Below are positions 55-30,622 of a stretch of DNA of 64,000 bases, one piece after another. The translations under genes and the position numbers were made by a program. This DNA is from an uncultured bacterium (GTDB taxonomy: Bacteria > Methylomirabilota > Methylomirabilia > Methylomirabilales > JACQHM01), in NCBI GenBank assembly GCA_964535215.1, contig CAZHST010000013.1, forward strand, positions 7,758 through 71,757, in the 5' to 3' direction. The stretch's first letter is position 1. Every line of letters starts with the position of its first letter. The notes under the pieces were generated by a model that made no database searches, had not been told where the DNA came from, and saw only the letters and a program-made list of their open reading frames with translations.

Positions 55-1152
55 CTACAGGACCCTAAGGGTGTCACGTAATGCCTGGATGAACTGGTCG
101 TTCTCGCTTGGTGTCCCGATCGTGACCCGGAGGTGGGTCTTCAGACCGTACCTGGCCATCGGATGGATCATCACCCCTTTCCTCAGAAGGGCCTCCGCAA
201 CTTGAACGGCGTCTTTTCCAACATCCACGAGGATGAAGTTCGCACTTGTCGGAACAAAGGGAAGCCCCAAGTTTTGAAACCCCTTGTAGAGCACCCTTTT
301 TCCCGCTTCGTTGAGCTGCCTGGAGAGGCGGAGGTGATCCGTGTCATGAAGGGCGGCTAAAGCGGCGACCTGGGCCAGCCCGTTCACGTTGAAGGGTTGC
401 CTGACCCGGTCCAGGAGCTGGACCAGGGCTGGCGGGGCCATCCCGTAACCGATCCGCAAACCCGCCAAACCGTGGATCTTGGAAAAGGTTCGTAAGACAA
501 GGATCAGGCGGCCCCGCCGTATCTCCTGGAGAAGGTCAGGCTTCACCTCCTCAGGCATATACTCGTAATAGGCTTCGTCAAACAGCAGGATGACCTTCTC
601 CGGAACCCGATCCAGGAAGGCCTCGATCTCTCGGGGTGGAACACAGGTTCCGGTGGGGTTGTTGGGATTACCGATGAAGATCATCTTGGTGCGATCGGTG
701 ATCCGTCGAGCCATCTCATCCAGGTCATGCCGGTACTCCTTCAAAGGGACCAGAACCAGCCGTGCGCCTGTTGCCCTGGTCGCCCTCCTGTAGACCATGA
801 AGGCCGGATCGGCGATAATGGCTTCGTCCTGAGGGCCAAGGAAGCACCGGGCGGCGAGATCGATCAATTCACAGCTTCCATTGCCAAGGAGGAAATGCGC
901 CGGATCGAGATCGAGCCTTTCAGCCAAGGCCCGCTTGAGGGCGTGGCCTCCTCCATCAGGGTACCTGTTGATTCCCTGAAGGGCTGACTGGATGGCTATG
1001 ACGGCTAAAGGTGAAGGACCAAGAGGGTTCTCGTTGGAGGCAAGTTTCACAAGGTCCCCTCCCCCCAGTTCCTTCTTGACCTCCTCGACGGGCTTGCCAA
1101 GGTTAGAGGGGGAAAGGTTTCTGAGATGCGGGGAAGCCAGCTCTTCGATCAT
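55..1152 (-). CDS. hisC: Histidinol-phosphate/aromatic aminotransferase (class I/II PLP enzyme)
   Basis: KLASNENPLGPSP, LGNGSCELI, GNPNNPTG, DEAY and RTFSKIHGLAGLRIG (PLP lysine) motifs; ATG overlaps the upstream TGA (ATGA). Confidence 0.9.
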   Translation of the reverse strand: MIEELASPHLRNLSPSNLGKPVEEVKKELGGGDLVKLASNENPLGPSPLAVIAIQSALQGINRYPDGGGHALKRALAERLDLDPAHFLLGNGSCELIDLAARCFLGPQDEAIIADPAFMVYRRATRATGARLVLVPLKEYRHDLDEMARRITDRTKMIFIGNPNNPTGTCVPPREIEAFLDRVPEKVILLFDEAYYEYMPEEVKPDLLQEIRRGRLILVLRTFSKIHGLAGLRIGYGMAPPALVQLLDRVRQPFNVNGLAQVAALAALHDTDHLRLSRQLNEAGKRVLYKGFQNLGLPFVPTSANFILVDVGKDAVQVAEALLRKGVMIHPMARYGLKTHLRVTIGTPSENDQFIQALRDTLRVL

Positions 1153-3743
1153 CGTAGGACGTGAACCTTTCCCGAGTAGCCGTCGATCTTGACCCTGGTC
1201 CCCTCCGGGAGCAAGAGGGTGGCCTTTTCCAAGACCACGGCCGGGATACCACTCTCGCGGGCCAGGCAGGCGCCATGGGCGAGGATGCCCCCTGTCTCCA
1301 GGATGAGTCCTGCTGCCTTCCTGATGAGCGGGAACATGCCTAAGTTCGCTGACCTTGCTACGATCACGACATCTTCGCTGACCTCCTCGAGACCCTTGGC
1401 GAAATCCAGCTCCTGGGGATCTATGATCCTCGCCGTTCCCACGGCTTCACCGGAAGAGACGGGGCTGCCGTGGAACTGTTGCACGGTCTCGAAGGTCGGC
1501 TTCTGACCGATCCCTTCCAAGGCATCCTCGAAGATCACGTTTGGCATCCGTCCGTGCTTTGAGAGATGAAGGGCCAACCGCCGCTCTTCTTTCCGTTGCT
1601 CTATTCTTCCTCTGATGGAATCGAAGGAGCTGAGGACCTCGGGGAGCTCTCGCGGATAGAGGTAAAAGAGGTCATCCCGTTGAAGTCCAAGTTTCTCCGC
1701 CAAGGCCAGCAAGGCCCTGCGGATCAAGGCGTACTCTGCGGTCAGGTAGTACTTCACGGTCTCCCGAAGGGGGAGGTAACGCTGGGCATAGGCGAGATCC
1801 TGAAACAGTTCCTGGATGAGGAGGGGGTTGACCCCCACCTGGGCCAGGCGGGTCCGAACCTCCTCTTCCCCTTTTCTCCTTTTTCGGGTCTGTTCGATGG
1901 CTTCGTGGAAGGGGTCCCGGGCCCCCTTCTTGAATTCTTTCACCATCCCTTCGAGGATTTGAGGATCCTCGGCGATCCTGGGGAGGGAGATCTCCAGCTC
2001 GTTGGGGGCGAGGTGACCGTAGACCTCCAGGAATTCCCTGGGGGACACCTCCCCCTGAGCGAGTCGTGCCAGGTCCCTTGTCTGTTGACCGATCTTGCTT
2101 TCCTCTAATCCCCTGAGCAGATCCCCGATCAGCCTTTCCCCTTCTTCCGGGAAGAAGGCTGTCATCTTCTTCTTGAACCTCTCGACGAAGAAAAAGCCGA
2201 GCCTGGCGGCGATGACAAAGTGGACTGCGGTAAAGGTCCTGAGATGCTCCAGATACGAGTGGATCTTTTCAACGATCTCCTCAGGAGAGACCTGGGAGGG
2301 GTCGTCGTCCCTTTCCCGGGCCAGATAGCGTTGAAGGGCTGGCTCCACCTTAAAGGAGAATTCATCGAGGTAACCCTCGGCCCTTTCAATCATCCCGGCC
2401 AGAAACTCCAGGAAGCGGGCGTGATACCTTCGCCCCCTTTTCGGGCCAAAGCGGGTGATGGCTTCTTCAAGGGTCAGACTTTGCTCGTAGAGGCCGAGCT
2501 CCGGGTAGTTTGCCAGCCGGGGGTTTGCTTTCACCTTCTTGATATAGCCTTCGATGTCAAGGGGGAAGCCAATGTGGAAGGTGGCTGCATCAAGCTCCAG
2601 GTTGAAGTAAGGATGGCCGCAGATTAGCTCGAAGAGGCCTTCGGAGGTCTTGTCGTCGAGGTCGTAGCCCAGATGCCGTCGGCCGATCTGGATCCCACCC
2701 TCTTCAGCGAAGATGTAGGTGAAGATCCCGAAGCTCATCGGCGTCGGGGTCGGGAGGATCTCCCCGATGTTCCCGTTGCTGTAAACGGCCTCGCTACAGG
2801 TGAGCCTCCCCTTTTGCCTCAGATCGGTGATCCTGGAGCGGAGCCGCTCCACCTCCTTCTTCCGATACCGCTCGATTTTTACCTCAAGCGGTTCATGGCC
2901 GATCGGGACCGGTCTCGACTGGACGATGGCAAGCTTTCCACCAGCAAAGGCGAATTCGATGTCCTGGGGCCCTTGAAAAAGGGCCTCGAGGGTCAGGCCT
3001 TGTTGAACCAAAAGGGCCAGCTGCTCGGGTGTAAGGGTCGGCCGATTCCTCCTCTCTTCCGGCACCGGGACCTCGCCCTTCAGGCAAAGCATGGAGGTTT
3101 TCTCAGAAAGTCTCTGATCAAGGATCCGTCCGTTCCTGCCCACACGGAAGACATCGCCCTGGACCTTTCCGGAAACCAGCGGCTCGCTTAAACCAAAGAC
3201 CGAGTTGATGAACAATTCCTCCCGGTCCAGCGTGATGGGGTTCAAGGTGTACATCACGCCTGAGACCTCGGCGTCGATCATCTCCTGGACCACGATGGCC
3301 ATCCCGTAGCCCTCCTGGTCCCCATCGAGGCCCATGCACCTCCGGTAAAGATCCGATCTAACGGTTTCCAGCGAAAGGAAACACTCCTTGATCGCCTCCA
3401 GGAGTTCTTCCTCCGAGCTCACGTTCAGGCGGGAGAGGTAGATGCCGGCAAAGCTTGCATGGGGGAGGTCTTCGTGGGTCGCGGAGCTTCTTACCGCAAC
3501 ATGATGAAAAGCTCGTTCTCGATAGGCCGCCAGGATCCTGTTCTTCAAAGGGTCGGGGATCTCGATCCCCCCGGAAGGGGAGCGCCCCGCTTTCCTGAAG
3601 GCGTTGGTCGTGATGACAAAGCCCCTCGGCACGGGAAGGCCGGCCTTGATCATCAGGCCCAGGTTCAAGGCCTTGACCCCAACCAGGGAAAGGTCCCCTT
3701 CCCGAACATCCCCGAGATCAAGGAGGTCCAACTCGTCAGCCAC
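1149..3743 (-). CDS. PEP/pyruvate-binding (PPDK_N) plus PEP-utilising swivel domain protein; rifampicin phosphotransferase/phenylphosphate synthase-like architecture
   Basis: N-terminal G.KA.NL, VAVRSSA..ED...SFAG and VQEM..A.VSGV, DIEFA motifs; central helical region; C-terminal GGILAHGACLARESGIPAV phospho-His motif; GTG start with SD. Confidence 0.85.
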   Translation of the reverse strand: MADELDLLDLGDVREGDLSLVGVKALNLGLMIKAGLPVPRGFVITTNAFRKAGRSPSGGIEIPDPLKNRILAAYRERAFHHVAVRSSATHEDLPHASFAGIYLSRLNVSSEEELLEAIKECFLSLETVRSDLYRRCMGLDGDQEGYGMAIVVQEMIDAEVSGVMYTLNPITLDREELFINSVFGLSEPLVSGKVQGDVFRVGRNGRILDQRLSEKTSMLCLKGEVPVPEERRNRPTLTPEQLALLVQQGLTLEALFQGPQDIEFAFAGGKLAIVQSRPVPIGHEPLEVKIERYRKKEVERLRSRITDLRQKGRLTCSEAVYSNGNIGEILPTPTPMSFGIFTYIFAEEGGIQIGRRHLGYDLDDKTSEGLFELICGHPYFNLELDAATFHIGFPLDIEGYIKKVKANPRLANYPELGLYEQSLTLEEAITRFGPKRGRRYHARFLEFLAGMIERAEGYLDEFSFKVEPALQRYLARERDDDPSQVSPEEIVEKIHSYLEHLRTFTAVHFVIAARLGFFFVERFKKKMTAFFPEEGERLIGDLLRGLEESKIGQQTRDLARLAQGEVSPREFLEVYGHLAPNELEISLPRIAEDPQILEGMVKEFKKGARDPFHEAIEQTRKRRKGEEEVRTRLAQVGVNPLLIQELFQDLAYAQRYLPLRETVKYYLTAEYALIRRALLALAEKLGLQRDDLFYLYPRELPEVLSSFDSIRGRIEQRKEERRLALHLSKHGRMPNVIFEDALEGIGQKPTFETVQQFHGSPVSSGEAVGTARIIDPQELDFAKGLEEVSEDVVIVARSANLGMFPLIRKAAGLILETGGILAHGACLARESGIPAVVLEKATLLLPEGTRVKIDGYSGKVHVLR

Positions 3744-3788: not shown

Positions 3789-4754
3789 CTACGCCGGCAC
3801 CACGGCCTCGGAGAGGCGGCGGCGATCCCGCTTCCCCCGTTCAACCACCCATCGCTTTTTCAGCTCTTCCCATTCGGGGAGGAACCGTTGGAAGGAAACG
3901 CCGTCAGGGGCCATCAAGGCCTCATCAAGGACCTTTCTGTAGAACGCGGTAATATCCCGCATCAAGCCCTCAGGATGTTCCCTTCCCGGGATCTTCAGGT
4001 AATCCACACCGATCCTGACGTAGTCGGGAAGCTCCCAGAGGAGGAGGGTAGGGTTGGTTTTTAAAGAGACTTTCTTCCGGGTAGGGCCGTCCACGCCCGA
4101 GACGTCCCATCCCGCCTGACAAACCCGGTGGCAGCTCCCCCCCCGGTTTGAGCTCCCCAGGTAGTGATCCTTGCCATCGGCGTCCACAACGTGTTCGAAC
4201 TTAAAGTAGCTGGACATGGTACACTTGCCGGGGCAGATGATTCCCCGTTGAAGAGGCTGGAACAGGAAGGCCTCCACGCGGACACCCACCTCCTGCTTGA
4301 TTCTCTTGATGTCGGCGATCTCAACCCCCCACCGGTAGGAGAGGATGATAAAGGTAGCCCCGATTTCCCGGTAGAATCGGATGTCCTCCCGGTTGGCCAC
4401 AGCGCAGGTGACGCTGGCGTGGATGTCCACATGGGGGAAATGCCTCCGCACCTGCCTGATACACCCGGGATCGTTCATGATGAAACCGTTCAAACCCCAG
4501 GTGCTGTAGGTCTCCACCTTCTTTAACAGGAGGGGGATCTCCTTCGGACCGGGCAGGGTGTTCAAGGCGACCTTTACCTCTTTCCCCGTGTCCGAAGCGG
4601 CTTCGTAGACCTCCTTGATCTCCTCATCCGTCAGCTCATCCTCGGGAGGCCGCCGGCTCCAACCCATGGCGCCGACGTAGACGGCATCAGCACCCGCCTC
4701 CAGGACGAGGAGGGCCATCTCCTTGGTCCCTCCGGGGGCCAAAAGCTTCGTCAT
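3789..4754 (-). CDS. U32 family protein, UbiU-like paralog 1 (putative Fe-S hydroxylase)
   Basis: LLAPGG, GADAVYVG..GWSRR, DIHASV, and the Cys cluster ICPGKC...SNRGGSCHRVC; LKIPGR. Confidence 0.85.
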   Translation of the reverse strand: MTKLLAPGGTKEMALLVLEAGADAVYVGAMGWSRRPPEDELTDEEIKEVYEAASDTGKEVKVALNTLPGPKEIPLLLKKVETYSTWGLNGFIMNDPGCIRQVRRHFPHVDIHASVTCAVANREDIRFYREIGATFIILSYRWGVEIADIKRIKQEVGVRVEAFLFQPLQRGIICPGKCTMSSYFKFEHVVDADGKDHYLGSSNRGGSCHRVCQAGWDVSGVDGPTRKKVSLKTNPTLLLWELPDYVRIGVDYLKIPGREHPEGLMRDITAFYRKVLDEALMAPDGVSFQRFLPEWEELKKRWVVERGKRDRRRLSEAVVPA

Positions 4755-4782: not shown

Positions 4783-4858
4783 TTAGCCATCAGCGGTCAG
4801 GTTTGAGGAGGTTCAAGGTTCAACGTTGAACTTTGAACCGTTTTTGGCTGACGGCTAA
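4783..4858. repeat. Nested palindromic intergenic element built from heptamer-like repeats
   Basis: Outer arms ttagccatcagc (4783-4794) and gctgacggctaa (4847-4858); inner near-perfect palindrome ggttcaaggttcaacgttgaactttgaacc (4810-4839). Confidence 0.7.
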
Positions 4859-5811
4859 GGGCTTATGTTCGTAAAGGTCCCTGGGGGGATCGTCGCAACC
4901 CCTAAGGCCTCCGATCCCACCAGCCGCACCAGCTCGTCGAAGAAGAGGTGGATCTCCCTAATGGTCTCTAGATCCCAGGATGTCATCACCCGGGACCGCC
5001 AGCTCTCTCTTAACGCATGGAGGACTTTGGTCTCGATCCCGCCAAGCACCTCTCGCCCGATCTCCTCCCAGATCGTGTCATCCTCTTTCATGTATGCTGC
5101 CGCCTCACAGTAGGCCTTGATAAACCCTTGGAGGAGGTCAGGGTGCTTGGCTAGGCATTCATCTTTCACGGTGAAGGCCGTGATGGGGATCATCCTTTTC
5201 ACCCCAAGTTCCCCGATCAAGTCCTGGACATCCAGGACCTGCCGGTAGCGCCCCGTGGCCACCAGGGGGGGGATCAGTTGCCAAAACTGAAAAGCGCCAT
5301 CGACCTTTCCCTCTTCGAGAAGCTGGACAAGGGCGGTCTTTGAGAGGGCCTCGACGACCCTTCCCTCTTCCTGGGGATCGAAGCCGTAGAGCTTCCGGCA
5401 GGCTCCTCTCGTGATCAGCCAGTTTTTGTCCAGGAGTCGGACAACCCCGATTCGTCTTCCCCGGAGATCCTGTAGGTCCCGGATAGGGGAGTCGTGGGGG
5501 GCGACCAATCCTCCGACGATCCTCCCGTAGGGGAAGACGGCGGTGATGGGAACCCCCCGAGTCCGATGACGGGCGATGGAGATCCAATCAATATCCACCA
5601 GGTCCGCCGTTCCGTCCTGAAGGGCGATCTCAAAGGATTGGAGGGATCCTTTGACCTGATCCTTCAGGAGGGTCATCTCCAGGAGAAAGCCCTGCTTTCG
5701 ATCCAGGCCAAGTTTTTTCAGGACGTACATCAGCCACCGGGGGCTTCCATGGGGCTCAAAGGCCGCTTTTAGGACCCCGGCTCCCGATGAGGGCTGGGTC
5801 AGCGCCGGCAT
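4855..5811 (-). CDS. NMT1/THI5/SsuA-like PBP-fold protein with no signal peptide (paralog 1)
   Basis: DLVDIDWISIARHR, DLQDLRGRRIGV and G.VDGAFQFW motifs; start moved to ATG 5811 (SD, 2 nt after the upstream stop); no hydrophobic N-terminus. Confidence 0.75.
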   Translation of the reverse strand: MPALTQPSSGAGVLKAAFEPHGSPRWLMYVLKKLGLDRKQGFLLEMTLLKDQVKGSLQSFEIALQDGTADLVDIDWISIARHRTRGVPITAVFPYGRIVGGLVAPHDSPIRDLQDLRGRRIGVVRLLDKNWLITRGACRKLYGFDPQEEGRVVEALSKTALVQLLEEGKVDGAFQFWQLIPPLVATGRYRQVLDVQDLIGELGVKRMIPITAFTVKDECLAKHPDLLQGFIKAYCEAAAYMKEDDTIWEEIGREVLGGIETKVLHALRESWRSRVMTSWDLETIREIHLFFDELVRLVGSEALGVATIPPGTFTNISP

Positions 5812-5812
5812 C

Positions 5813-6775
5813 TCATCCCCTTCCAACCGCTGCCTGGGAGAGGAGAAGGCCTGCCCGCCGGCTCCTCTCCATGGTCCACCGCTTTTTCAGCTCCTGCCAC
5901 GGAGCAACATACCGTTCCAGGGAGACTTCGCCAGGGGAGGCTTTGACCTCGTCCACGACCCCTCGATAGAATCGGACCAGGTCCCTAACCAGCTCTACGG
6001 ATCGCTCCCTCCCTTGGATTTTCAGGTACTCAACCCCTGCCTTGATGTACCCGGGCACCTCCCACAGCATGAAGGTTGGATCGGATCGTAAGGTGGTCTT
6101 TCTTAGCGTCCCCTCGGGGGAAAGGGTGAACTCCCATCCTGCCTGACAGACCCGGGAACAGCCTCTGGCCCCCCGGTTGGCGCTCCCGAGAAAGCCCTCC
6201 TCGATCCCATCAGACCAGTCTTTGTAGACAAGATAGCTGGACATGATGCACTTCCCCGGGCAGACGAGCCCCCCTTGAAGGGGTTGGAAGAGAAAGACCT
6301 CAAGTCCCACATCCAGTTCGGCCTTGATCGCTCTAACCTCCTCGACGCTCAAGCGGTAGGGGAGGATCACGAAGGTCGCGCCCAGATCCCGGTAAAACCG
6401 GATATCCTCCCGGTTTGTCAGACCGCAGCCGACACTGGTATGGATGCCAATAAAGGGGAAGTGGCGCCTCACCTCCACCAGGCACCCTGGATCGGCGATC
6501 ATGAGCCCTGAGACCCCCCAGTCCACGTACTGCTCCACCTTCTTCAAGAGAAGCTTCATCTCCGTCGGACCAGGCATGGCGTTGATGGCGACCTTCACCT
6601 CCCGCCCAAGGGTCCGGGCGAACTCGTTCAGCTCCTTGATCTCCCCATCCTTCAGATCCAGCTGGTAGGATCGCCGACTCCATCCAAAGGCCCCCACGTA
6701 GACAGCCTCGGCCCCCTCCTCCAAGACCGTGTAGGCCATCTCCAGGGTCCCACCAGGAGCCAGAAGCTTCGCCAT
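5813..6775 (-). CDS. U32 family protein, UbiU-like paralog 2
   Basis: LLAPGG, GAEAVYVG..GWSRR, VCPGKC...SANRGARGCSRVC and LKIQGRER; SD gaggagg. Confidence 0.85.
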   Translation of the reverse strand: MAKLLAPGGTLEMAYTVLEEGAEAVYVGAFGWSRRSYQLDLKDGEIKELNEFARTLGREVKVAINAMPGPTEMKLLLKKVEQYVDWGVSGLMIADPGCLVEVRRHFPFIGIHTSVGCGLTNREDIRFYRDLGATFVILPYRLSVEEVRAIKAELDVGLEVFLFQPLQGGLVCPGKCIMSSYLVYKDWSDGIEEGFLGSANRGARGCSRVCQAGWEFTLSPEGTLRKTTLRSDPTFMLWEVPGYIKAGVEYLKIQGRERSVELVRDLVRFYRGVVDEVKASPGEVSLERYVAPWQELKKRWTMERSRRAGLLLSQAAVGRG

Positions 6776-8686: not shown

Positions 8687-8762
8687 TGTCGCCTCCTCCA
8701 GGATTTTTCGCCCTGTTTAGAGCAGGGATCACCAGCCTTTATAGGTTAGCCTATAGGGAGTG

Positions 8763-8777
8763 GCAAATACTGTTCCA
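8763..8777 (-). promoter_or_regulatory. Sigma-54 (-24/-12) promoter for the U32 operon
   Basis: Minus strand reads TGGAACAGTATTTGC (GG-N10-GC), about 77 nt upstream of the ATG at 8686. Confidence 0.7.
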
Positions 8778-8860
8778 TACCTAACCGGAGAAGGCTGATG
8801 CATCTGGATTATTTTGGTAGTGAAGATGTCCTAAAGGCAGAGGGGAAGAAGGGAAGAGAA

Positions 8861-8894
8861 TGGGGCATTTGACCAACAAGGGCATTTCACCCAC
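8861..8894. promoter_or_regulatory. Putative tandem upstream activator sites for an NtrC-family enhancer-binding protein
   Basis: tggggcatttgacca (8861-8875) and caagggcatttcacccac (8877-8894); both resemble sites at 20724-20757. Confidence 0.55.
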
Positions 8895-14861: not shown

Positions 14862-14895
14862 TCCTCCTCCTTTGAGCACCATGGATCCGGGTTTC

Positions 14896-16530: not shown

Positions 16531-16549
16531 CGAACATCCAACAGGAAGG

Positions 16550-18561: not shown

Positions 18562-18630
18562 CGGCAGATCCCCTGATCTACAACACGATGCTGGACGTAG
18601 AAAACAGCCCTCCCAGCGGGCATCCGACAC

Positions 18631-19638: not shown

Positions 19639-19667
19639 GGATCGTCTCCTTTTTGGCGTTTGAACCC

Positions 19668-20654: not shown

Positions 20655-20670
20655 AGCATACTTTGTGCCA
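20655..20670 (-). promoter_or_regulatory. Sigma-54 (-24/-12) promoter for the creatininase-to-LuxR operon
   Basis: Minus strand reads TGGCACAAAGTATGCT (GG-N10-GC). Confidence 0.75.
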
Positions 20671-22183: not shown

Positions 22184-22205
22184 GCCTCCTCCCAAGATTT
22201 TCTCC

Positions 22206-23730: not shown

Positions 23731-24600
23731 CTACCTGAGAGAAGAGGGAGAGGGGATTCCGTACCGGTCCGTGATCCGTTGAAGGACTCCCTCGTTCCTC
23801 AAACCATTGAGCGTCTGATCGAGGGTCGTTTTCAGGTCCTTGTCCCCCGCCCGAACGGCGATGACAAGGTTCCCCTGACGGCCCGGCTCGGGAACATAGC
23901 TCAGGTATGGGTTCGTGAGGATGATCTCATCGGTACCCACCTGTTCTGCGGGGACCCCCAGGAAGAAATCACAGCGCTTCTGAAGGAGGGAGTTTCCGAG
24001 GGCCCGGGTGAACCCTTTTCGGGTATCCACCCAGAAGTAGTTGGTACGGAGGCCCAAACGCTGGGTGATCTCACGGGCAAGCTCAACATCGAAACCTGTG
24101 GGCTTTGGGTCCTTGGTGGAAAAGGGGGGGTTATTGGGATCCGCACAGACGGTCATGACCCCTGTTTCCTTGGCCTTCGCCAGCGCCCCATAGTGTTGGG
24201 ATCGGAGGTAGGCGATGATCTTCCAGATCTCGTCCGAGGTGATGCGACCAGCGAAGGCGCCCATTTGGGTCCCTGGCCGTCCAGCGGCAATACTTGCGAA
24301 CACGTCCCCATCCCTCCCCCCGAACCGCCAGAAGTCGTCGGTCAGATCAGGGCCTTTTGCCCCTCTGCCCCCTGCTCCGTGGCAGAAGATGCAGAGACGC
24401 TGGTAGAGGACCTTCCCCTCCTCGATTGCACCAGGGTCCCCCTCGAAAGGGTTGGTGAGGCCTGCTGGTTCGTCCTGACCGAAAGCGATTTGCCCCCCGG
24501 GTGGAAAGGGCCAAAAGGTGAAGGCCAGAGGCAAGACGATCATCCCTCCCAGGAGGGCTCTTTTCGGTGGCCAGGCATGAAACGGGCTCTTTCGATGCAT
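23731..24600 (-). CDS. Fusion of an XoxG/MxaG-like cytochrome c and a single-lobe MxaJ/XoxJ-like domain
   Basis: Signal-like N-terminus, CIFCH heme motif, GPDLTDD.W and TQMGAF; then VCADPNNPPFS...CDF...IAVR.GD..LK..LDQ. Confidence 0.8.
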   Translation of the reverse strand: MHRKSPFHAWPPKRALLGGMIVLPLAFTFWPFPPGGQIAFGQDEPAGLTNPFEGDPGAIEEGKVLYQRLCIFCHGAGGRGAKGPDLTDDFWRFGGRDGDVFASIAAGRPGTQMGAFAGRITSDEIWKIIAYLRSQHYGALAKAKETGVMTVCADPNNPPFSTKDPKPTGFDVELAREITQRLGLRTNYFWVDTRKGFTRALGNSLLQKRCDFFLGVPAEQVGTDEIILTNPYLSYVPEPGRQGNLVIAVRAGDKDLKTTLDQTLNGLRNEGVLQRITDRYGIPSPSSLR

Positions 24601-24729: not shown

Positions 24730-25632
24730 CTAGTCGAAGGGGGCATAGAACGGCACCCCATATTTTGCCAGGATTTCTCGGACCTGTCCACTCTTTACTA
24801 ACCGATCAATGACCTGATTGATGGCCTCCTTTAAGTCCTGATCCTCCTTTCTCACCGCGATGGCGATGTTCCACCGCATCTCCGGCTCAGGGGTGTATCC
24901 TTCGAGCAGCTTCAGGCCGCTCTCTGGGTGCAACTTGATCCACCATCCGGCGGTCGGGGCCCAAAGGAGGGCCACATCCGGTGCCGGGGAAGGAGCCGGC
25001 GATCCGGGGGGTGACGATATCCACGTTGAGACCCCTGGTGGTGGAACCTCCCCTTTTTGCATCGCCTCGAGGGCTTCCCTTCCGTTGCGGAAGAGGGCCC
25101 GTTTGTAACCCTTGTAGAAGAGGTAGCCGTCGGCCGGGGTCGTCATCTCAACGCCGATCCTTTGGTCTTTGAGCTCCTGCAGACTCCGAATCTCTGGAGC
25201 TCCTCCGCGGACGACCAGCACAAACCCTGTCCCAAAATAGGGCTTGGTGAGCGCTAACCCTTTCTCCTCCATCTCTTCTTCCATTTCCGATCCGGTCGGA
25301 AGTCCCATGAAGAAGTCGCATTTCCTTTGCTGGATTGAGGTTCGGAGGGCCCGCCCAAGCCCACCCCGGGTGCCGGTATCAGCCCAGAAGTAGGTCACCC
25401 GGAGCCCTAAGCTCCTGCCTATTTCATCCGCGATCTCCACGTCGAATCCGGGACTGCCAGGGTTGTTGCTGGAGAAAGGGGGGTTATAGGGATCCACGCA
25501 AGCAATTAAGGAGCCCCGCTCCCTGACCTTCGCCAGGGCGTCTGCATCGGCCAAGGGGGGGCTTATCATCGGAACGACCAGCAACGGCGCAAAGGTCATC
25601 CCCAGAAACCGTAGAGGGTTCACCGTCTCCAT
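24730..25632 (-). CDS. MxaJ/XoxJ-like periplasmic binding protein of quinoprotein module 1
   Basis: ACVDPYNPPFS, GFDVEIA, KCDF and IAIAVRKED..LK.AI motifs; signal peptide from ATG 25632. Confidence 0.82.
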   Translation of the reverse strand: METVNPLRFLGMTFAPLLVVPMISPPLADADALAKVRERGSLIACVDPYNPPFSSNNPGSPGFDVEIADEIGRSLGLRVTYFWADTGTRGGLGRALRTSIQQRKCDFFMGLPTGSEMEEEMEEKGLALTKPYFGTGFVLVVRGGAPEIRSLQELKDQRIGVEMTTPADGYLFYKGYKRALFRNGREALEAMQKGEVPPPGVSTWISSPPGSPAPSPAPDVALLWAPTAGWWIKLHPESGLKLLEGYTPEPEMRWNIAIAVRKEDQDLKEAINQVIDRLVKSGQVREILAKYGVPFYAPFD

Positions 25633-25723
25633 CTCCTTTCCTGCCGAAACGCACGAAGGGAGGGCAGGAGATCCCTCCCGCCCTCCCCCGTACGGCCCAC
25701 GCCATTTCGGATCCAAGGCGGCC

Positions 25724-27445
25724 TTAGTGGAGGCCAAAGACCACCAGAAGCCCACCCTTCGTGTTGGTCTTCAACCACTCCTTGTAGTAGAGGGGCCAGA
25801 TCCCGCCTCCCCCGGCCCCCGCCACGATGGCCACATACTGCTTCCCCTCAACGGTGAAGGTGGTCGGGTTGCCGTGAATGCCGGTGCCGACGTTAAACCT
25901 CCAAAGCTCCTGACCCGTCGTGTCATCGAAGGCCATGAAGGTGCCCTCAGGGTTCCCGGCAAACACCAACCCGCCGGCGGTGGCGAGGACACCGCTCGTC
26001 ATGGGCATGGCATTATACCGGGTCCAGGCGATCTTCCCGCTGGCGGCATCGATGGCGTGGAGCCAACCATGGCCGGGTTTCAACCGAAGGACCTTGGCAC
26101 CCAGGTACCACTCCCCCCGCCTCCACTCCATCCTCGCGGCCTGGAGGTCCATAGCCATGTTGAAGGCCGGGACGTAGGCCAGGCCAGTCTTCGGGCTATA
26201 GGCAATGGGATGCCACTCCTTCCCCCCGTCCAGGACCGGGGCAACGTCTTCGGTGACCCGATCGTAGACGACATCCTTCTCCGGCCAGTTGAAGATAGGG
26301 CGCCCCTCCCGGGTGAAGCCTTTGTTCCAGTTGATCCGGGAAATGGCCGTCGCGTAGATGAACTTCCCGTTTGTCCGGTCAATGGCGTAGAAGTAACCGT
26401 TCCGGTCGCCGTGGAGCCACACCTTCCGACCCTGCACATCGGCCAGGACCACCTCGTTCACCCCGTCATAGTCATAGGGGTCGTTCGGGGTGTACTGGAA
26501 CCAGAACTTGATCTTGCCCGTGTCAGGGTCCATGGCCAGGGTGCAGTTGGTGTAGAGGTTGTCACCCGGCCGGACATGGCGATCGAAGTCGGGGCCAGGG
26601 TTTCCCACCGGCCAGTAGAGGATGTTCAGTTCAGGATCGTAGGAGCCGGTCACCCAGGCCGAGCCCCCACCGTACTTCCAGGAATCCCCACCCCAGGTCT
26701 CGTTTCCCGGTTCCCCAGGGCCAGGGATTGTGTAGGTCTGCCAGACTTGGTCCCCGGTCTCGGCATCAATGGCCTTGATCCATCCCCGGACGCCGTACTC
26801 GGCCCCTGAGGTCCCGAAGATGATCTTCCCGCGGAGGGCCATGGGCATAATGGTGAAGCTCTCCGAGTACGTGTAGTCCCCATGCTTTTTATCCCAGATG
26901 ACCTCCCCGGTCATGTTGTTCAGGGCGACCACATGGGCATCGAGGGTGGCCAGATAGACCTTGTCCCGGTAAAGGGCCACGCCCCGGTTCACCACGTCGC
27001 AGCAGAGGTGAGGGTAGACATCTCCCGGAAGCTCCCGTTCATACTTCCAGACGATCCTCCCGTTTCTGCCATCCACAGCCAGGACCCGGTTAAAGGAGGT
27101 GGTGACGTAGATCATCCCGTTGATGGCATTGGCCTGGCTATCCTGGCCTTCGACGACACCAAACGAGACGATATACTTCGGCACCAGGTTCCTAACGTTC
27201 CCTTTGTTGATCTGGTCGAGGGGGCTAAACCGGGTGCTGTGATAGTCCCGACCATAGAGGAGCCAGTTATTCGGGTCCTTATCGGCGTTCAGCAGGATCT
27301 CGTCGCTCACGTAGTTCGGGACCTGCTGGGCTTCCAGCACTTCCGGGAGGCCATAGACTTGGGCGGAGACAACAGCCGGTACGCCGACAAAGACAACCGG
27401 CAGGAGGAACAGGCCAAGAAGCATCCGCCTCTCTTTGGTCTTCAT
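25724..27445 (-). CDS. PQQ-type alcohol dehydrogenase 1, lanthanide-type (XoxF/PedH/ExaF-like)
   Basis: Signal peptide; vicinal CC in LCCDVVNRG; GAEY, GNP and YDYDGVNE (D-x-D at 26465-26473); beta-propeller W/GxG repeats. Confidence 0.9.
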   Translation of the reverse strand: MKTKERRMLLGLFLLPVVFVGVPAVVSAQVYGLPEVLEAQQVPNYVSDEILLNADKDPNNWLLYGRDYHSTRFSPLDQINKGNVRNLVPKYIVSFGVVEGQDSQANAINGMIYVTTSFNRVLAVDGRNGRIVWKYERELPGDVYPHLCCDVVNRGVALYRDKVYLATLDAHVVALNNMTGEVIWDKKHGDYTYSESFTIMPMALRGKIIFGTSGAEYGVRGWIKAIDAETGDQVWQTYTIPGPGEPGNETWGGDSWKYGGGSAWVTGSYDPELNILYWPVGNPGPDFDRHVRPGDNLYTNCTLAMDPDTGKIKFWFQYTPNDPYDYDGVNEVVLADVQGRKVWLHGDRNGYFYAIDRTNGKFIYATAISRINWNKGFTREGRPIFNWPEKDVVYDRVTEDVAPVLDGGKEWHPIAYSPKTGLAYVPAFNMAMDLQAARMEWRRGEWYLGAKVLRLKPGHGWLHAIDAASGKIAWTRYNAMPMTSGVLATAGGLVFAGNPEGTFMAFDDTTGQELWRFNVGTGIHGNPTTFTVEGKQYVAIVAGAGGGGIWPLYYKEWLKTNTKGGLLVVFGLH

Positions 27446-27695: not shown

Positions 27696-28082
27696 CTACC
27701 GGAGGACCTTTGAAGGGTCTCCCCGAGACTTGGACCGGATATAGGCGATGATCTTCCAGATCTGGTCAGGGGTCAGCTTTCCCTCCCATGGCGGCATGAG
27801 CGTCCCCGGACGGCCTCGGCTGATGGTTTTAAACAGCATGCCATCGGTTGGCTGGTACCTCCAGACGTCATCCGTGAGATCTGGACCCGTCCCACCTTCC
27901 GCGTTTAAGCCGTGGCAGTTATGGCAACCGGTGGCGAGGTAAAGCTGGTGTCCTTCGGCAATGGCCTTAGGATCTCCCGTATACGGATTCTTGTCATCCT
28001 CCTGAGCCGTGGTGATTGCCGTGGCCAAAATCCCTATGGCCAGCCCTCCAGCAAGAATCATCCCTCGGTCCCATCGTCTCAT
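27696..28082 (-). CDS. Cytochrome c (XoxG/MxaG cL-like or c550)
   Basis: Signal peptide; NPY.GD..AI.EG; CHNCH; GPDLTDD.W.Y; axial Met in TLMPPW. Confidence 0.88.
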   Translation of the reverse strand: MRRWDRGMILAGGLAIGILATAITTAQEDDKNPYTGDPKAIAEGHQLYLATGCHNCHGLNAEGGTGPDLTDDVWRYQPTDGMLFKTISRGRPGTLMPPWEGKLTPDQIWKIIAYIRSKSRGDPSKVLR

Positions 28083-28092
28083 CGTCTAGGCC

Positions 28093-28902
28093 TCATCCCT
28101 CAAAGGGGGGATAGAAAGGAATCCCATATTTGGCCAGGATCCGCTCAATGGTTCCATCCTTCAAGAGCGTTTCCACAGCTCCATCAATGACCTCCTTTAA
28201 ATCCTGGTCTTCCTTTCGGATTCCAATCGCCACGTTGGTTCTGAGTTCTGGATCCGGGTGATACCTGTCGGCGATCTTTACCCTCAGGGAGGGATCGGTC
28301 CGCTTCAACCATCCAAAGGTGGGAGCCCAGAGGAGGCCGGCTCTGAGCTCCCCCTTCTGGATGGCCTGGAGAAGAGCCCTCGGATCTCGGTACTGACGGA
28401 CCTGATACCCTCTTTGGAAGAGGACCCGATAGGGTCTGGTCCACACCTCAACCCCCACGGGGGTTCCCTTCAAGGCCTCCAGGGGAGGTGTCGCCTCGTC
28501 CTCGCGGAGCACGAGAACGTAGGCTCCTCCATAATAGGGCCGGGAGAACATCAGCTCCTCGCCGGCCCATTCCCCTACCGGAAGGCCCATGAAGAGATCG
28601 CAGCTCTTCTGGGCCAAGAGCCCGCGTCTGATCGCCCGCTCGGTGAAGTAGGTCTCGTTCCAGTGGAGCTGGAGCCGGATCCTGAGATGCGCAGCAATGG
28701 CCTGGGCGATCTCGATGTCGAACCCTGGGCGGGTGGGATCATCCATCGAGTAGGGGGGATTGTCTGGGTCCACGCAGATGCGGAGGATACCCGAGGCCTT
28801 GATCCTCTCCCAGGTCCCCAGCTGGGCCAAAACATCGGAGAGGGCCGGACCTCCAACGAGGAGGAGCCCCGCCATCAGGATCGAGACCTTCACCGTTTCC
28901 AA
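28093..28902 (-). CDS. MxaJ/XoxJ-like periplasmic binding protein of quinoprotein module 2
   Basis: ICVDPDNPPYS, GFDIEIA, SCDLFMG, LLWAP and IGIRKED motifs; signal peptide. Confidence 0.82.
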   Translation of the reverse strand: METVKVSILMAGLLLVGGPALSDVLAQLGTWERIKASGILRICVDPDNPPYSMDDPTRPGFDIEIAQAIAAHLRIRLQLHWNETYFTERAIRRGLLAQKSCDLFMGLPVGEWAGEELMFSRPYYGGAYVLVLREDEATPPLEALKGTPVGVEVWTRPYRVLFQRGYQVRQYRDPRALLQAIQKGELRAGLLWAPTFGWLKRTDPSLRVKIADRYHPDPELRTNVAIGIRKEDQDLKEVIDGAVETLLKDGTIERILAKYGIPFYPPFEG

Positions 28903-28921: not shown

Positions 28922-30622
28922 TTAGTCCATCAGCCCAAAGACGAAGAGGGCCCCACCCTTGGTGTTCTCTTTCAACCAGGGGGCACACCCCCCACCCATC
29001 GTCTGCCATCCGATCCAGCCACCCCACCCTGAGACGATAGCCACGTACTGCTTGCCATCAACGGTGAAGGTGGTGGGGCTCCCCTTGATCCCGGAACCGG
29101 TCTGGAACTTCCAGAGGAGCTCGCCGGTCTTGGCATCGAAGGCCAGGAATTCCCCCTCCGGATTCCCCGTGAAGACCAATCCCCCTCCTGTCGCCATCAC
29201 ACCGGCGTACATCGGAGAACGGTTGTTCCAGACCCAGGCTGTTTTCCCGGTGGCCACATCAATGGCCTTTAGCGCCCCGTGGCCCGGATGGTACGCCAGG
29301 AGCTCCGCGCCCAAGTAAAACTGCCCCCTCCTCGGCTCCTCAAACTTGGCCTGCATATCCATGGTGCACTGGAAAGTCGGGACGTAGGCGTACCCGGTCT
29401 GGGGGCTGTAAGCCATTGGCACGGTCTCCTTCCCCCCTTCCAAAGATGGGGAGATGTTCCTCGTCACCCGATCTCGATAGACGAACTTCTCCGGGTTCAC
29501 GATCGGCCGGCCGGTGACGGGATCTAACCCCTTGGCCCAGTTAATAGGAGAAAGAGGGGTCGCATAGATGAACTTCCCGTTCGTCCGGTCAATGGCATAA
29601 AAGTAGCCATTTCGATCGGCATGGACCCAGGCCTTCCGTCCCTTGATATCTACCAGAATCACCTCGTTCGCCCCATCATAGTCCCAGACATCATGGGGGG
29701 TATACTGGAAGTAGAACTTGATCTTCCCGGTGTCCGGATCGAGGGCCAGGGTCGAGTTTGTATAGAGGTTGTCGCCGGGCCTGACCTCGCCGTCCAGATC
29801 AGGCGTTGGGTTTCCAACCCCCCAGTAGAGGATGTTCAGCTCGGGATCGTAAGAGCCTGTGAGGTAGGTAGAGCCGCCCCCGTACATCCAGGCGTCCCCT
29901 GATCCCCACGTCTCGTTCCCAGGCTCCCCAGGGGCAGGGATCGTGTAGGTCTTCCAAACACTTGCCCCGGTCTCCGCGTCAAAGGCCTGGATAAAGAGGC
30001 GGGTCGGATACTCGGCCCCTGAGGTGCCCACGATGATTTTCCCCCGTAAGGGGAGGGGGGCCACCGTCGTCGTATAGCCCCCGGTATAGTCCTCAAATTT
30101 GACATCCCAGATCACTTTACCGGTCTTGGCATCCAACGCGACAAGGTGCTCATCCAGCGTGGCCATATAGACTTTATCCCTGTACAGGGCAACTCCCCTG
30201 TTCAAGACATCACAGCAGAGATACCGGGTGATGTCCTCCGGGAGGGGATGGTAGTAGCGCCAGAGCACTTTTCCCGTTCGGCCATCCAAGGCGAAGAGCC
30301 GGTTCCAAGACGAGGTGACATAGAGCACCCCGTTATTGGCCATCGCCTGGCTGTTTTGGCCATCGAGGACCCCAAACTGGAAGACCCATTTGGGGACGAG
30401 CTTCTTCACATTGCTGGTGTTAATTTGGGCGAGGGGACTGAAGCGGGTGCTGGCGTAGTCCCGACCATAGAAAAACCAGTTGTGGGGATCCTTCTCGGCG
30501 TTCAAGAGCATCTCATCCGTGACATAGATCGGCTCAGCCTGCGCCGCGGCGACGGCCGGTACCGTGAAGAGGGTCAGGAGCGCCAGGATGAACCATCGAA
30601 AGCCTGGGTTCAATGGATTCAT
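28922..30622 (-). CDS. PQQ-type alcohol dehydrogenase 2, lanthanide-type
   Basis: Signal peptide; LCCDVLNRG, GAEY, GNP, TPHDVWDYDGANE (D-x-D at 29675-29683) and HADRNG. Confidence 0.9.
   Translation of the reverse strand: MNPLNPGFRWFILALLTLFTVPAVAAAQAEPIYVTDEMLLNAEKDPHNWFFYGRDYASTRFSPLAQINTSNVKKLVPKWVFQFGVLDGQNSQAMANNGVLYVTSSWNRLFALDGRTGKVLWRYYHPLPEDITRYLCCDVLNRGVALYRDKVYMATLDEHLVALDAKTGKVIWDVKFEDYTGGYTTTVAPLPLRGKIIVGTSGAEYPTRLFIQAFDAETGASVWKTYTIPAPGEPGNETWGSGDAWMYGGGSTYLTGSYDPELNILYWGVGNPTPDLDGEVRPGDNLYTNSTLALDPDTGKIKFYFQYTPHDVWDYDGANEVILVDIKGRKAWVHADRNGYFYAIDRTNGKFIYATPLSPINWAKGLDPVTGRPIVNPEKFVYRDRVTRNISPSLEGGKETVPMAYSPQTGYAYVPTFQCTMDMQAKFEEPRRGQFYLGAELLAYHPGHGALKAIDVATGKTAWVWNNRSPMYAGVMATGGGLVFTGNPEGEFLAFDAKTGELLWKFQTGSGIKGSPTTFTVDGKQYVAIVSGWGGWIGWQTMGGGCAPWLKENTKGGALFVFGLMD

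Follow-up and report, generated by a model that had tools for sequence, protein, structure and literature searches.

A conserved cassette of U32-type proteins beside lanthanide alcohol dehydrogenases in an uncultured Methylomirabilota bacterium, and its possible part in supplying PQQ without oxygen

The locus described here raises the question of how periplasmic quinoprotein dehydrogenases might be supplied with their cofactor without oxygen (O2) in an uncultured bacterium of the Methylomirabilota (here NC10). Methylotrophy is driven by methanol and alcohol dehydrogenases, lanthanide enzymes included, whose cofactor is pyrroloquinoline quinone (PQQ), and growth on methanol without O2 occurs among denitrifying and phototrophic methylotrophs. 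The sole known PQQ pathway needs O2 at PqqB and PqqC, and anaerobic PQQ supply is an open question (PMC12423496, PMC6094997); O2-independent synthesis is an acknowledged open problem, and a pqqAED-puuD-serC-pyrD cluster has been proposed for anoxic PQQ synthesis in Hyphomicrobium (PMC12423496). Candidatus Methylomirabilis oxyfera (M. oxyfera) has a PQQ-containing methanol dehydrogenase, yet is reported to be without PQQ biosynthesis genes (PMC6094997). The window analysed (the whole 64-kb stretch of DNA, positions 7,758 to 71,757 of contig CAZHST010000013.1, assembly GCA_964535215.1) places two lanthanide/PQQ alcohol dehydrogenase (ADH) modules on the same strand as two operons of cytoplasmic enzymes, the second of which, the U32 cassette, is our main subject. 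We conclude that this cassette is a putative O2-independent hydroxylase system of the U32 type, previously undescribed in the literature searched, and we propose, tentatively and as somewhat short of probable, that it would provide PQQ or a very close analogue to periplasmic dehydrogenases without O2, by synthesis, maturation or salvage, a proposal drawn from homology and gene context.

Twenty-seven open reading frames (ORFs), all on the minus strand, span positions 55-30622 of the window, and the original prediction of about 27 co-oriented genes agrees with the gene content and layout found when protein families were assigned by Pfam and NCBIfam scans (throughout, "cut-off" means a model's own bit-score threshold). 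Read from the transcribed 5′ end, the island begins with ADH1, a MoxJ-like protein and a cytochrome c, followed by ADH2, a further MoxJ-like protein and a fusion of cytochrome c with a solute-binding protein (SBP) segment, and then by a histidine kinase and a sigma-54 response regulator. After a 245-bp gap come a creatininase-family protein, two luciferase-like proteins, NMT_c, an FAD flavoprotein, NMT_b, a 138-aa protein, a GabD-like aldehyde dehydrogenase (ALDH), an ABC-2 (ATP-binding cassette) ATPase, an HbpS/GlcG-like protein, an ABC-2 permease and a PAS-LuxR regulator; a 248-bp gap then precedes U32a, U32b, U32c, NMT_a, U32d, the dikinase and an aminotransferase. NMT_a, NMT_b and NMT_c are three NMT1-like proteins, "dikinase" denotes the PPDK_N/PEP-utiliser (phosphoenolpyruvate) protein of the cassette, and L-numbers denote comparison loci fetched from other genomes and metagenomes. 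The genes of the cassette are as follows.

55..1152, minus strand: HisC-family aminotransferase dependent on pyridoxal phosphate (PLP) (TIGR01141 324 bits, cut-off 276; PLP-lysine motif RTFSK)
1149..3743, minus strand: Rph/PigC-type PEP-utilising ATP-dependent phosphotransferase, the dikinase (PPDK_N, PEP-utilizers, Rph_4th)
3789..4754, minus strand: U32d, UbiU/TrhP-like Fe-S protein (PF01136)
4855..5826, minus strand: NMT_a, PqqT-like protein a, cytoplasmic, embedded among the U32 genes (best match PqqT 9B1U, E 8.6e-27)
5813..6775, minus strand: U32c, UbiU-like Fe-S protein, 58% identical to U32b (PF01136)
6786..7742, minus strand: U32b, UbiU-like Fe-S protein (PF01136; UbiU model 121 bits, cut-off 440)
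7760..8686, minus strand: U32a, UbiV-like Fe-S protein (PF01136; UbiV model 59 bits, cut-off 275)

Loci carrying the cassette were located by alignment of the dikinase, in a scan of one genome per species and then a metagenome scan, and all proteins of the window were mapped by tblastn. The cassette was conserved as a block in 72 loci (about 66 non-redundant), with a strictly conserved core of seven genes: the aminotransferase, four U32 proteins (one UbiV-like and three UbiU-like), the NMT1-like protein and the dikinase. Carriers were found in NC10, the Alpha-, Beta-, Gamma- and Deltaproteobacteria and the Acidobacteriota; they include Rhodoblastus acidophilus, R. sphagnicola, several Aromatoleum, Azoarcus, Ferrovum, Sideroxydans, Novimethylophilus and Sulfuritalea, as well as Motiliproteus, Neptunomonas, Thiorhodococcus, Thiodictyon, Deltaproteobacteria and an Acidobacteriota metagenome-assembled genome (MAG). 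To our knowledge NC10, the Acidobacteriota and the Deltaproteobacteria are not expected to make ubiquinone, and Ferrovum, Sideroxydans and M. oxyfera are, we take it, lithoautotrophs or methanotrophs. The closest relatives of the dikinase were a protein from a Joint Genome Institute metagenome (94% identity), one from an NC10 MAG (78%) and that of M. oxyfera (57%), which places the window in an NC10 bacterium, and no plasmid in PLSDB encodes it. In one Ferrovum sp. MAG (DAIDKJ01), two separate contigs (L020 and L026) each carry a dikinase gene and U32 genes, which could mean that the cassette is duplicated or that the bin contains more than one strain.

The same comparison does not uphold the single 30-kb island that had been envisaged. 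In M. oxyfera the cassette, together with its PAS-LuxR gene, sits among pdxA, BON and epimerase genes with no ADH nearby, and the cassette is likewise without any ADH in most of the roughly 66 other loci; a single conserved island was thus rejected, and the arrangement in the window is one of juxtaposed separable modules, all of them on our reading touching PQQ, in which the ADH modules are separable neighbours of the U32, flavin and kinase-regulator set. Partner genes were counted by a census of ORFs filtered on third-position G+C content (GC3) combined with tblastn, in 41 non-NC10 loci with adequate flanks. A short-chain dehydrogenase/reductase (SDR) accompanies the cassette in 36 of these, a dual-specificity phosphatase in 30, a fumarylacetoacetate (FAA)-hydrolase in 27, a major facilitator superfamily (MFS) efflux pump in nine and a tautomerase of the 4-oxalocrotonate (4-OT) type in at least seven; the nearest relatives of the FAA-hydrolase are 2,4-didehydro-3-deoxy-L-rhamnonate hydrolase and HpaG. 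The literature searched, which included work on Aromatoleum and on prephenate, yielded neither a description of the cassette nor a link between U32 proteins and PQQ, and a survey paper on PqqU makes no mention of the cassette; within that literature, the earlier remark that no described pathway has this gene set still applies.

U32 proteins are established or proposed O2-independent hydroxylases that take their oxygen from prephenate, with phenylpyruvate as the proposed by-product, and the known systems act on ubiquinone and RNA (PMC10990095). All four U32 proteins of the cassette have the Peptidase_U32 domain and conserved Fe-S cysteines. In U32a, C32, C174, C187 and C191 (C-X12-C-X3-C) were invariant in 69 of 69 orthologues, a spacing that we take to be of the UbiV type, and the four cysteines of the U-like proteins (173, 177, 207 and 211 in U32b; CX3C...CX3C) were invariant in all 213 U-like sequences. 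U32b, U32c and U32d are paralogues with 55-58% identity to one another. Their scores fall far below the equivalog cut-offs (UbiU 97-123 bits against 440, UbiV 59 against 275, TrhP 88-112 against 534), and they are therefore not orthologues of UbiU, UbiV or TrhP; their sequences point to a new subfamily set within U32 and not to enzymes acting on ubiquinone or tRNA. The closest known parallel is UbiU-UbiV-UbiT (also TrhP and RlhA), with which the cassette shares Peptidase_U32 proteins with invariant four-cysteine motifs, one V-like and several U-like members, an accessory substrate-binding protein encoded among them, hosts that are facultative or obligate anaerobes and microaerophiles, and presumably prephenate as oxygen donor. 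It differs in having three U-like paralogues instead of one, in being always joined to a Rph/PigC-type dikinase and a HisC-type aminotransferase, and in its accessory protein: whereas UbiT is an SCP2 lipid carrier, no SCP2 protein is present in the cassette, and the embedded accessory protein is PqqT-like, of a kind suited to a soluble polycarboxylate.

The two remaining core enzymes are the dikinase and the aminotransferase. The dikinase is composed of an ATP-grasp domain (PF01326), Rph_4th (PF27448) and a swivelling histidine domain (PF00391), with no PEP/pyruvate-binding barrel domain, and its catalytic His823 motif was invariant in 15 diverse orthologues. This is the three-part architecture, conserved catalytic histidine included, of rifampicin phosphotransferase (Rph), prodigiosin ligase (PigC) and flavonoid phosphate synthetase, a family in which known enzymes transfer phosphate to the hydroxyl or carbonyl oxygens of bulky aromatic compounds. 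Unlike those enzymes, the dikinase belongs to its own clade, strictly syntenic with U32 genes, and scored far below equivalog level (Rph 287 bits against 999, PigC 234 against 1300, PEP synthase subfamily 312 against 945). The aminotransferase, present in 41 of 41 non-NC10 and 6 of 6 NC10 cassettes, is no more distant from a putative phenylalanine aminotransferase (best PDB match 4R2N, E 1.9e-62) than from HisC. In a Rhodocyclaceae MAG (JBGOZF010000034; L075, 3820-5247) it is fused to the dual-specificity phosphatase in one protein of 475 aa, which suggests consecutive steps on a phosphorylated intermediate.

What points to PQQ within the cassette itself is the NMT1-like protein. Its best match, 9B1U, is PqqT, a periplasmic protein of Methylobacterium extorquens AM1 that binds PQQ with nanomolar affinity (PMC11331073). 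An AlphaFold model of NMT_a (pLDDT 91.8) aligns in structure with PqqT in its PQQ-bound form, with template-modelling (TM) scores of 0.85/0.92 and a root-mean-square deviation of 2.0 Å (E 7.5e-28), and the next fold class, Thi5/ThiY/SsuA, follows at E 7e-17, eleven orders of magnitude worse. A second protein of this kind is encoded in the flavin operon, and its orthologues are the last operon gene in L072 and L073; it is 53% identical to NMT_a and keeps the DKNW motif, G112 and T41. The PQQ contacts described for PqqT (PMC11331073) were mapped on an alignment of 47 cassette PqqT-like proteins, in PqqT numbering.

13914..14882, minus strand: NMT_b, PqqT-like protein b, cytoplasmic (best PDB match PqqT 9B1U, E 9.8e-23)
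K142, PQQ contact: kept in 47 of 47
G112, PQQ contact: kept in 47 of 47
W144, DKNW motif: kept in 47 of 47
D141, DKNW motif: kept in 46 of 47
N143, PQQ contact: kept in 46 of 47
T41, PQQ contact: S or T in all 47
Y188, stacking: aromatic in 38 of 47, F in the window proteins

The cassette proteins therefore share with PqqT the fold, DKNW, G112, a serine or threonine at T41, the stacking aromatic residue and a genomic association with PQQ enzymes, but differ in their low identity to it (24-26%), in their encoding inside operons of cytoplasmic enzymes and in a ligand that is putative. They also lack the secretion and import context of PqqT: no signal peptide was found in NMT_a, NMT_b or NMT_c, no ABC importer permease adjoins them, and the neighbouring ABC system is a DrrAB-type exporter. 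The original prediction had spoken of three signal-less periplasmic-binding-protein (PBP) proteins, and all three are indeed signal-less; they are not of one kind, two being PqqT-like and NMT_c being a decarboxylase homologue (9JP7), and their equivalence was rejected. The PqqT-like subfamily also occurs in haloarchaea at 43-47% identity. Haloplanus halophilus (CP098514; L151) has four tandem PqqT-like NMT1 genes (7929-11958) within 10 kb of a PQQ beta-propeller dehydrogenase (16395-18122), among them P0284 (10001-10993), 46% identical to NMT_a, and a molybdopterin oxidoreductase and a halocyanin-like copper protein are encoded there as well. In archaea as well, then, members of the PqqT-like family are found with PQQ enzymes.

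We then examined PQQ genes in the window and around the cassette elsewhere. No pqqA-like peptide and no homologue of PqqB-E or PqqU was found across the 64 kb, in searches covering the island gaps, the PqqA E-X3-Y pattern and the PqqB-E proteins of L036 as queries; the same PqqA pattern detects pqqA in L027, L036 and L101. The absence of pqq genes noted earlier thus extends to the whole window, but it is no general property of the cassette, which coexists with pqq genes in at least three loci. In L036 (a Sideroxydans MAG), pqqABCDE, an MFS gene, a kinase, a LuxR regulator and the FAA-hydrolase lie on one strand within 10 kb and converge on the cassette (confirmed by Pfam). In L101 (a metagenome contig) the cassette is followed by a complete pqqABCDE and by a TonB receptor 40% identical to E. 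coli PqqU (19902-21899), and in L075 pqqA (MKWETPKACNMRFGFEVTMYIATR) and pqqB lie at the locus edge, divergent and 3.5 kb upstream of the cassette, with a PQQ-ADH and a cytochrome c downstream. A pqqE homologue lies at the contig end in L103. Two deltaproteobacterial MAGs (L030 and L076) have a PQQ-ADH divergent upstream of the cassette and, downstream, a TonB receptor with 36% identity to E. coli PqqU over 682 residues (14382-16505 in L076, where a TonB gene comes after it).

Taken together, at least six independent loci have pqqABCDE, a PqqU-like importer or a PQQ dehydrogenase beside the cassette, against an expectation below one, and adjacency of a pqq operon was seen in four differently arranged cases against about 0.2 expected, taking flanks of about 10 kb at each locus and a single pqq operon in a genome of roughly 4 Mb; our own rough Poisson estimate is about 1e-4, a figure that ignores the shared ancestry of the carriers. 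Relative to the canonical pqqABCDE(F) pathway, the cassette is thus physically linked to it in several genomes and, like the pathway with its O2-using PqqB, includes hydroxylases, whereas the window has no PqqA-E homologue, no radical-SAM enzyme and no precursor peptide, and its enzyme families are entirely different. The Hyphomicrobium proposal shares flavin dehydrogenases and an aminotransferase with the island, in different enzyme families (PMC12423496). Coexistence with pqq operons, together with presence in NC10 reported to lack them, therefore points to a PqqA-independent route or to action on imported PQQ-type molecules, and the PqqU-like importers beside the cassette fit the latter. 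The original idea of a quinone-type cofactor or an aromatic compound accordingly keeps its tie to PQQ, through the PqqT-like protein in each operon and the pqq neighbourhoods, and loses the single island and the comparison with MftE; the identity of the product is a prediction from homology.

We hypothesize that the cassette would act either in de novo or late-stage PQQ synthesis, bypassing the O2-dependent PqqB and PqqC, or in the repair or salvage of imported PQQ-type molecules. The substrate would be an aromatic polycarboxylate (PQQ, a precursor or a derivative) held in the cytoplasm by the PqqT-like protein, as its fold, pocket residues and neighbourhood suggest. By the precedent of UbiU and UbiV, the UbiV-like U32a may pair with each of the three UbiU-like paralogues, which would give at most three hydroxylations or oxidations driven by prephenate. 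The dikinase would phosphorylate a hydroxyl group of an intermediate, and in Proteobacteria the dual-specificity phosphatase, sometimes fused to the aminotransferase, would remove the phosphate; the HisC/Phe-type aminotransferase may clear the phenylpyruvate from each prephenate step, or install or remove an amino group on the intermediate.

The presumed recipients of such a cofactor in the window are the two ADH modules.

28922..30622, minus strand: ADH1, PedH-type lanthanide/PQQ alcohol dehydrogenase, periplasmic, 566 aa (TIGR03075 638 bits, cut-off 480)
28093..28902, minus strand: MoxJ-like periplasmic binding protein 1 (SBP_bac_3; TIGR03871 below cut-off; signal peptide)
27696..28082, minus strand: c-type cytochrome, MoxG/PedF-like (Cytochrome_CBB3 domain; TIGR03872 and TIGR04494 below cut-off)
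25724..27445, minus strand: ADH2, second PedH-type lanthanide/PQQ ADH, 573 aa (TIGR03075 607 bits, cut-off 480)
24730..25755, minus strand: MoxJ-like periplasmic binding protein 2 (SBP_bac_3; TIGR03871 below cut-off)
23731..24600, minus strand: cytochrome c fused to a MoxJ-like SBP_3 segment (Cytochrome_CBB3, residues 58-132; SBP_bac_3, residues 150-281)

Lanthanide-dependent PedH (6ZCV/6ZCW) is the best solved relative of both ADHs (ADH1 on 6ZCV, E 8.5e-131; ADH2, E 3e-121), which are 65% identical to each other. Both belong to the eight-bladed PQQ propeller enzymes of the methanol/ethanol family and have the D-Y-D lanthanide signature (WDYDG and YDYDG), a vicinal Cys-Cys pair (at 136 in one and at 148 in the other), and signal peptides, as expected of the lanthanide PQQ-ADH type (PedH/ExaF/XoxF). 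The earlier description of two ADH-J-cytochrome modules with lanthanide quinoproteins is therefore borne out by the family matches, the TIGR03075 scores, the PedH match and the DYD motif. Judging by homology, both periplasmic modules would oxidise alcohols and pass the electrons to c-type cytochromes, the cytochrome at 27696..28082 being the presumed acceptor of ADH1. The true start of MoxJ-like protein 2 is probably near 25632, because the listed ORF overlaps ADH2 by 32 nt and an internal methionine precedes a signal-peptide-like stretch. The stop of the cytochrome c::SBP_3 fusion lies just 4 nt from the start of the histidine-kinase gene.

Downstream of the ADH modules lie the genes and promoter elements for regulation.

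22206..23726, minus strand: sensor histidine kinase, AtoS-like (4HB_MCP-HAMP-HisKA-HATPase)
20786..22195, minus strand: sigma-54-dependent response regulator, AtoC/NtrC-like (Response_reg, Sigma54_activat, HTH_8)
20656..20670, minus strand: sigma-54 -24/-12 promoter of the flavin operon, TGGCACAAAGTATGC (motif match; identical element upstream of the orthologous operon in L073)
8935..9642, minus strand: PAS-LuxR transcription regulator (PAS_9 and GerE domains)
8763..8777, minus strand: sigma-54 -24/-12 promoter of the U32 cassette, TGGAACAGTATTTGC (motif match; M. oxyfera (L002) and L004 have counterparts 5′ of their first U32 gene)

With one mismatch allowed, the promoter motif TGGCAC-N5-TTGC matches at only five places in the 64 kb. 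Two of these are in the only two large intergenic gaps, correctly oriented, and precede the first gene of the operon concerned by 77-115 nt; the GG-N10-GC spacing of -24/-12 elements is found in both gaps, and an activator is encoded nearby at 20786-22195. A kinase, a sigma-54 regulator and two sigma-54 operons, as originally predicted, are thus supported by the domain matches, the elements in both gaps and the counterparts in L002, L004 and L073. An enhancer motif shared by the operons, also predicted, is not: the two upstream regions have only four 8-mers in common (e.g., GTGGGTGA) against about two expected by a rough estimate, which is about chance level. Orthologues of the kinase and regulator adjoin the flavin operon in L072 and L073 and the U32 cassette in L082, L083 and L108 (all NC10), and because the pair adjoins one operon in some contigs and the other in others, we infer a single NC10 regulon made up of the pair, the flavin operon and the cassette, in which the kinase and sigma-54 regulator would switch on both operons. 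The PAS-LuxR gene travels with the NC10 form of the cassette, in six of six NC10 cassette loci with adequate flanks.

The flavin operon and the ALDH and exporter genes that follow it complete the island.

19668..20540, minus strand: creatininase-family hydrolase, cyclic amide or ring hydrolase type (PF02633 112 bits)
18631..19671, minus strand: luciferase-like flavin/F420 oxidoreductase 1 (PF00296; no NCBIfam model above cut-off)
17533..18630, minus strand: luciferase-like flavin/F420 oxidoreductase 2 (PF00296; best PDB matches luciferase alpha chains and luciferase-like monooxygenases, LLMs)
16550..17512, minus strand: NMT_c, 4,5-dihydroxyphthalate decarboxylase homologue, a PBP-fold aromatic decarboxylase (9JP7)
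14896..16590, minus strand: FAD flavoprotein of the succinate dehydrogenase / L-aspartate oxidase / TfrA family (FAD_binding_2, Succ_DH_flav_C; NCBIfam models all below cut-off)
13474..13890, minus strand: conserved 138-aa protein, no Pfam or NCBIfam match (orthologue of 69% identity inside the L072 operon)
11990..13495, minus strand: NAD(P) aldehyde dehydrogenase, like GabD/succinate-semialdehyde dehydrogenase (SSADH) (Aldedh 583 bits; TIGR01780 626 bits, cut-off 646)
11007..11921, minus strand: ABC-2 exporter ATPase, DrrA type (TIGR01188 342 bits, cut-off 312; TIGR03864 PQQ_ABC_ATP 230 bits, below cut-off)
10457..10969, minus strand: periplasmic HbpS/GlcG-like protein (PF03928 125 bits; signal peptide)
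9657..10547, minus strand: ABC-2 exporter permease, DrrB/PedC-like (ABC2_membrane; TIGR01247 and TIGR03861 below cut-off)

Named orthologues of the flavin operon (at least 60% identity) come from NC10 only, and two other NC10 contigs (L072 and L073) have it beside the kinase and regulator, with no ADH. NMT_c matches the Comamonas 4,5-dihydroxyphthalate decarboxylase 9JP7 over residues 1-319 of its 320 (234 bits, E 2.3e-68) and is an enzyme homologue rather than a binding protein; an orthologue of 75% identity is found in L073. The L072 operon lacks the decarboxylase homologue and has an extra isochorismatase-family hydrolase (7106-7666) between its two luciferase-like genes. For the creatininase-family protein, the creatininase, MftE and IolN models all fall below cut-off and the best PDB matches are creatininases (E about 1e-8). 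The analogy with MftE and mycofactocin, drawn earlier from its family, fails: the MftE model TIGR03964 gave 49 bits against a cut-off of 172, and the island has no mftA-type precursor peptide and no radical-SAM gene. The FAD flavoprotein, whose named orthologues at 60% identity or more are likewise confined to NC10, probably starts about 20 codons downstream of its listed start, because homologues begin about 20 residues later. Its next homologue (L074, 10001-11698; 44% identity) has argS on one side and citryl-CoA-type genes on the other, with an operon for histidine biosynthesis next to it, and probably has a different function. Within our proposal this second sigma-54 operon of NC10 would further tailor the same ligand class by decarboxylation, ring or amide hydrolysis and dehydrogenation.

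The ALDH, ABC-2 exporter and HbpS-like genes resemble those that commonly go with PQQ-ADH clusters, to judge by the ped cluster, whose usual content we take to include such genes. Compared with the ped/exa clusters (PedH, PedF, PedG, PedABC and PedI of Pseudomonas putida), the island has PedH-like ADHs, a cytochrome c, MoxJ/PedG-like proteins, ABC-2 genes, an ALDH and a LuxR-type regulator in common; it differs in that its ALDH is GabD-like and not ExaC/PedI-like, its transporter matches PedB/PedC only below cut-off, it has no pqq genes, and two extra sigma-54 operons are interleaved. The GabD-like ALDH lies directly 3′ of the cassette in other NC10 loci (L079, L084 and L093). The product may reach the periplasm through the adjoining ABC-2 exporter, and an MFS efflux pump takes the equivalent place in Aromatoleum and Sideroxydans.

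The rest of the window (30.8-64 kb) is housekeeping in character (alaS, recX, asd, leuS, lptE, holA, murJ, ilv genes, miaA, aroA, cmk and rpsA), and no Rfam family was matched in the window, where a riboswitch or known RNA might have named a ligand. An enolase-superfamily gene (mandelate racemase / muconate lactonising; 30821-31987, plus strand) is divergent from ADH1 and is followed by a PilT-like T2SSE ATPase gene, and a 545-aa ORF without a Pfam match (37996-39633, minus strand) is overlapped almost wholly by a 513-aa ORF on the opposite strand (38038-39579, plus strand).

Several observations weigh against a role of the cassette in PQQ supply. About 60 of the 66 loci show no PQQ gene within 10 kb, and in at least three loci the cassette coexists with the O2-dependent pqqB (and pqqC where the operon is complete). 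Carriers with pqq genes and NC10 bacteria reported without pqqA, pqqD and pqqE cannot be fitted by a single scheme unless it is a peptide-independent route or salvage. Identity of the PqqT-like proteins to PqqT is just 24-26%, and the carboxylate-binding pocket residues could serve prephenate or another aromatic polycarboxylate equally. A protein search did not find the flavin operon in M. oxyfera; the GabD-like ALDH, luciferase-like enzymes and amidohydrolase of NC10 resemble what we take to be N-heterocycle degradation sets (Rut and pyridine pathways), and the SDR, FAA-hydrolase and tautomerase of the proteobacterial cassette are classic catabolic enzyme types.

These last points lead to a catabolic or detoxifying alternative, which we consider unlikely, whereby the cassette (with the flavin operon in NC10) would degrade PQQ, another aromatic or N-heteroaromatic polycarboxylate or an aromatic amino compound without O2. 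Transamination, up to three ring-destabilising U32 hydroxylations, SDR redox chemistry and FAA-hydrolase cleavage of a C-C bond in a beta-diketone would be followed in NC10 by decarboxylation, ring hydrolysis and oxidation to succinate via the GabD-like dehydrogenase. Such a sequence would make use of the SDR, the FAA-hydrolase with its nearest relatives named above and the tautomerase, of the dihydroxyphthalate-decarboxylase homologue NMT_c, of the SSADH-like ALDH 3′ of the cassette in other NC10 loci and of the isochorismatase-family hydrolase of L072; LysR regulators are frequent in the alphaproteobacterial loci, and the adjoining PqqU-like importers would suit uptake followed by breakdown. 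A kinase plus a phosphatase would be wasteful in one catabolic route, however; the attached transporters are mostly for efflux (Bcr/CflA MFS above cut-off, DHA2 MFS, ABC-2) and not uptake, the CoA ligases and ring reductases typical of anaerobic aromatic degradation are not present, degrading a scarce cofactor would be of little use to carriers that are presumably autotrophs or methanotrophs, and clustering with a pqq biosynthetic operon would be unexpected. Biosynthesis or salvage is favoured over catabolism because of the paired kinase and phosphatase, the efflux rather than uptake transporters, the presumed lithoautotroph or methanotroph carriers and the pqq operon link, while the SDR, FAA-hydrolase and tautomerase set and the GabD-like ALDH keep the degradative reading alive.

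It is also doubtful, to a similar degree, that the ADH modules, flavin operon and cassette are mere neighbours with no functional coupling, the cassette hydroxylating an unrelated target such as another cofactor, RNA or a lipid. The targets of known U32 systems, the distance of the M. oxyfera cassette and its pdxA, BON and epimerase neighbours from the methanol dehydrogenase cluster, the many loci without a nearby PQQ gene and the flavin operons without an ADH would all suit such independence; it leaves unaccounted for the enrichment of PQQ genes around the cassette in several differently arranged loci, the PqqT-like proteins in both operons and the presence of their family near a PQQ dehydrogenase in an archaeon, and the U32 scores set these proteins apart from the ubiquinone and tRNA systems. 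Multiple hydroxylations are typical of catecholate or hydroxypyridinone chelators, and the cassette might instead make a different secreted aromatic metabolite without O2, either a polyhydroxylated or carboxylated chelator of lanthanide or iron or a redox mediator, with the PqqT-like protein binding that product or prephenate and the link to PQQ being only functional (metal or redox supply). Efflux pumps beside the cassette and TonB receptors, followed by TonB in L076, form a metallophore-like layout, the neighbouring dehydrogenases are of the lanthanide-dependent (DYD) type, and PQQ-bound PqqT can hold lanthanides near its ligand (PMC11331073). Yet the TonB receptors are specifically PqqU-like (36-40% identity over their full length), the conserved pocket residues are those that contact PQQ in PqqT, and no nonribosomal peptide synthetase (NRPS), NRPS-independent siderophore (NIS) synthetase or other known chelator-assembly gene is present, and we judge this explanation decidedly improbable.

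Returning to PQQ supply, its most far-reaching form, which we think quite unlikely, is that the cassette of 7-10 genes would be a complete peptide-independent and O2-independent PQQ route, an anaerobic counterpart of pqqABCDE as UbiUVT is of UbiIHF, with phosphatase, SDR, FAA-hydrolase and tautomerase added to the seven-gene core in Proteobacteria. In a speculative chemistry, the U32 proteins would hydroxylate a tyrosine- or prephenate-derived ring, the dikinase would activate a phenolic oxygen so that nitrogen could take its place, and a 2,4-dioxo-dicarboxylate, handled by the SDR, FAA-hydrolase and tautomerase, would condense with the aryl amine to give the pyridine-2,4-dicarboxylate ring.

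Overall, the gene set joins candidate O2-independent hydroxylases to a homologue of a PQQ-binding protein and clusters with pqq operons, PQQ importers and PQQ enzymes, and the question is directly testable because the carriers include cultured genera and strains (Aromatoleum, Azoarcus sp. CIB and Rhodoblastus acidophilus). A complete anaerobic route, if true, would explain how PQQ enzymes are loaded without O2 in NC10 methanotrophs, which are reported to have no pqq genes, in phototrophic methylotrophs of the Rhodoblastus type and in denitrifiers. Even if the product is not PQQ, the cassette would extend the prephenate-type chemistry of U32 proteins to a new class of soluble substrates and to new partner enzymes.

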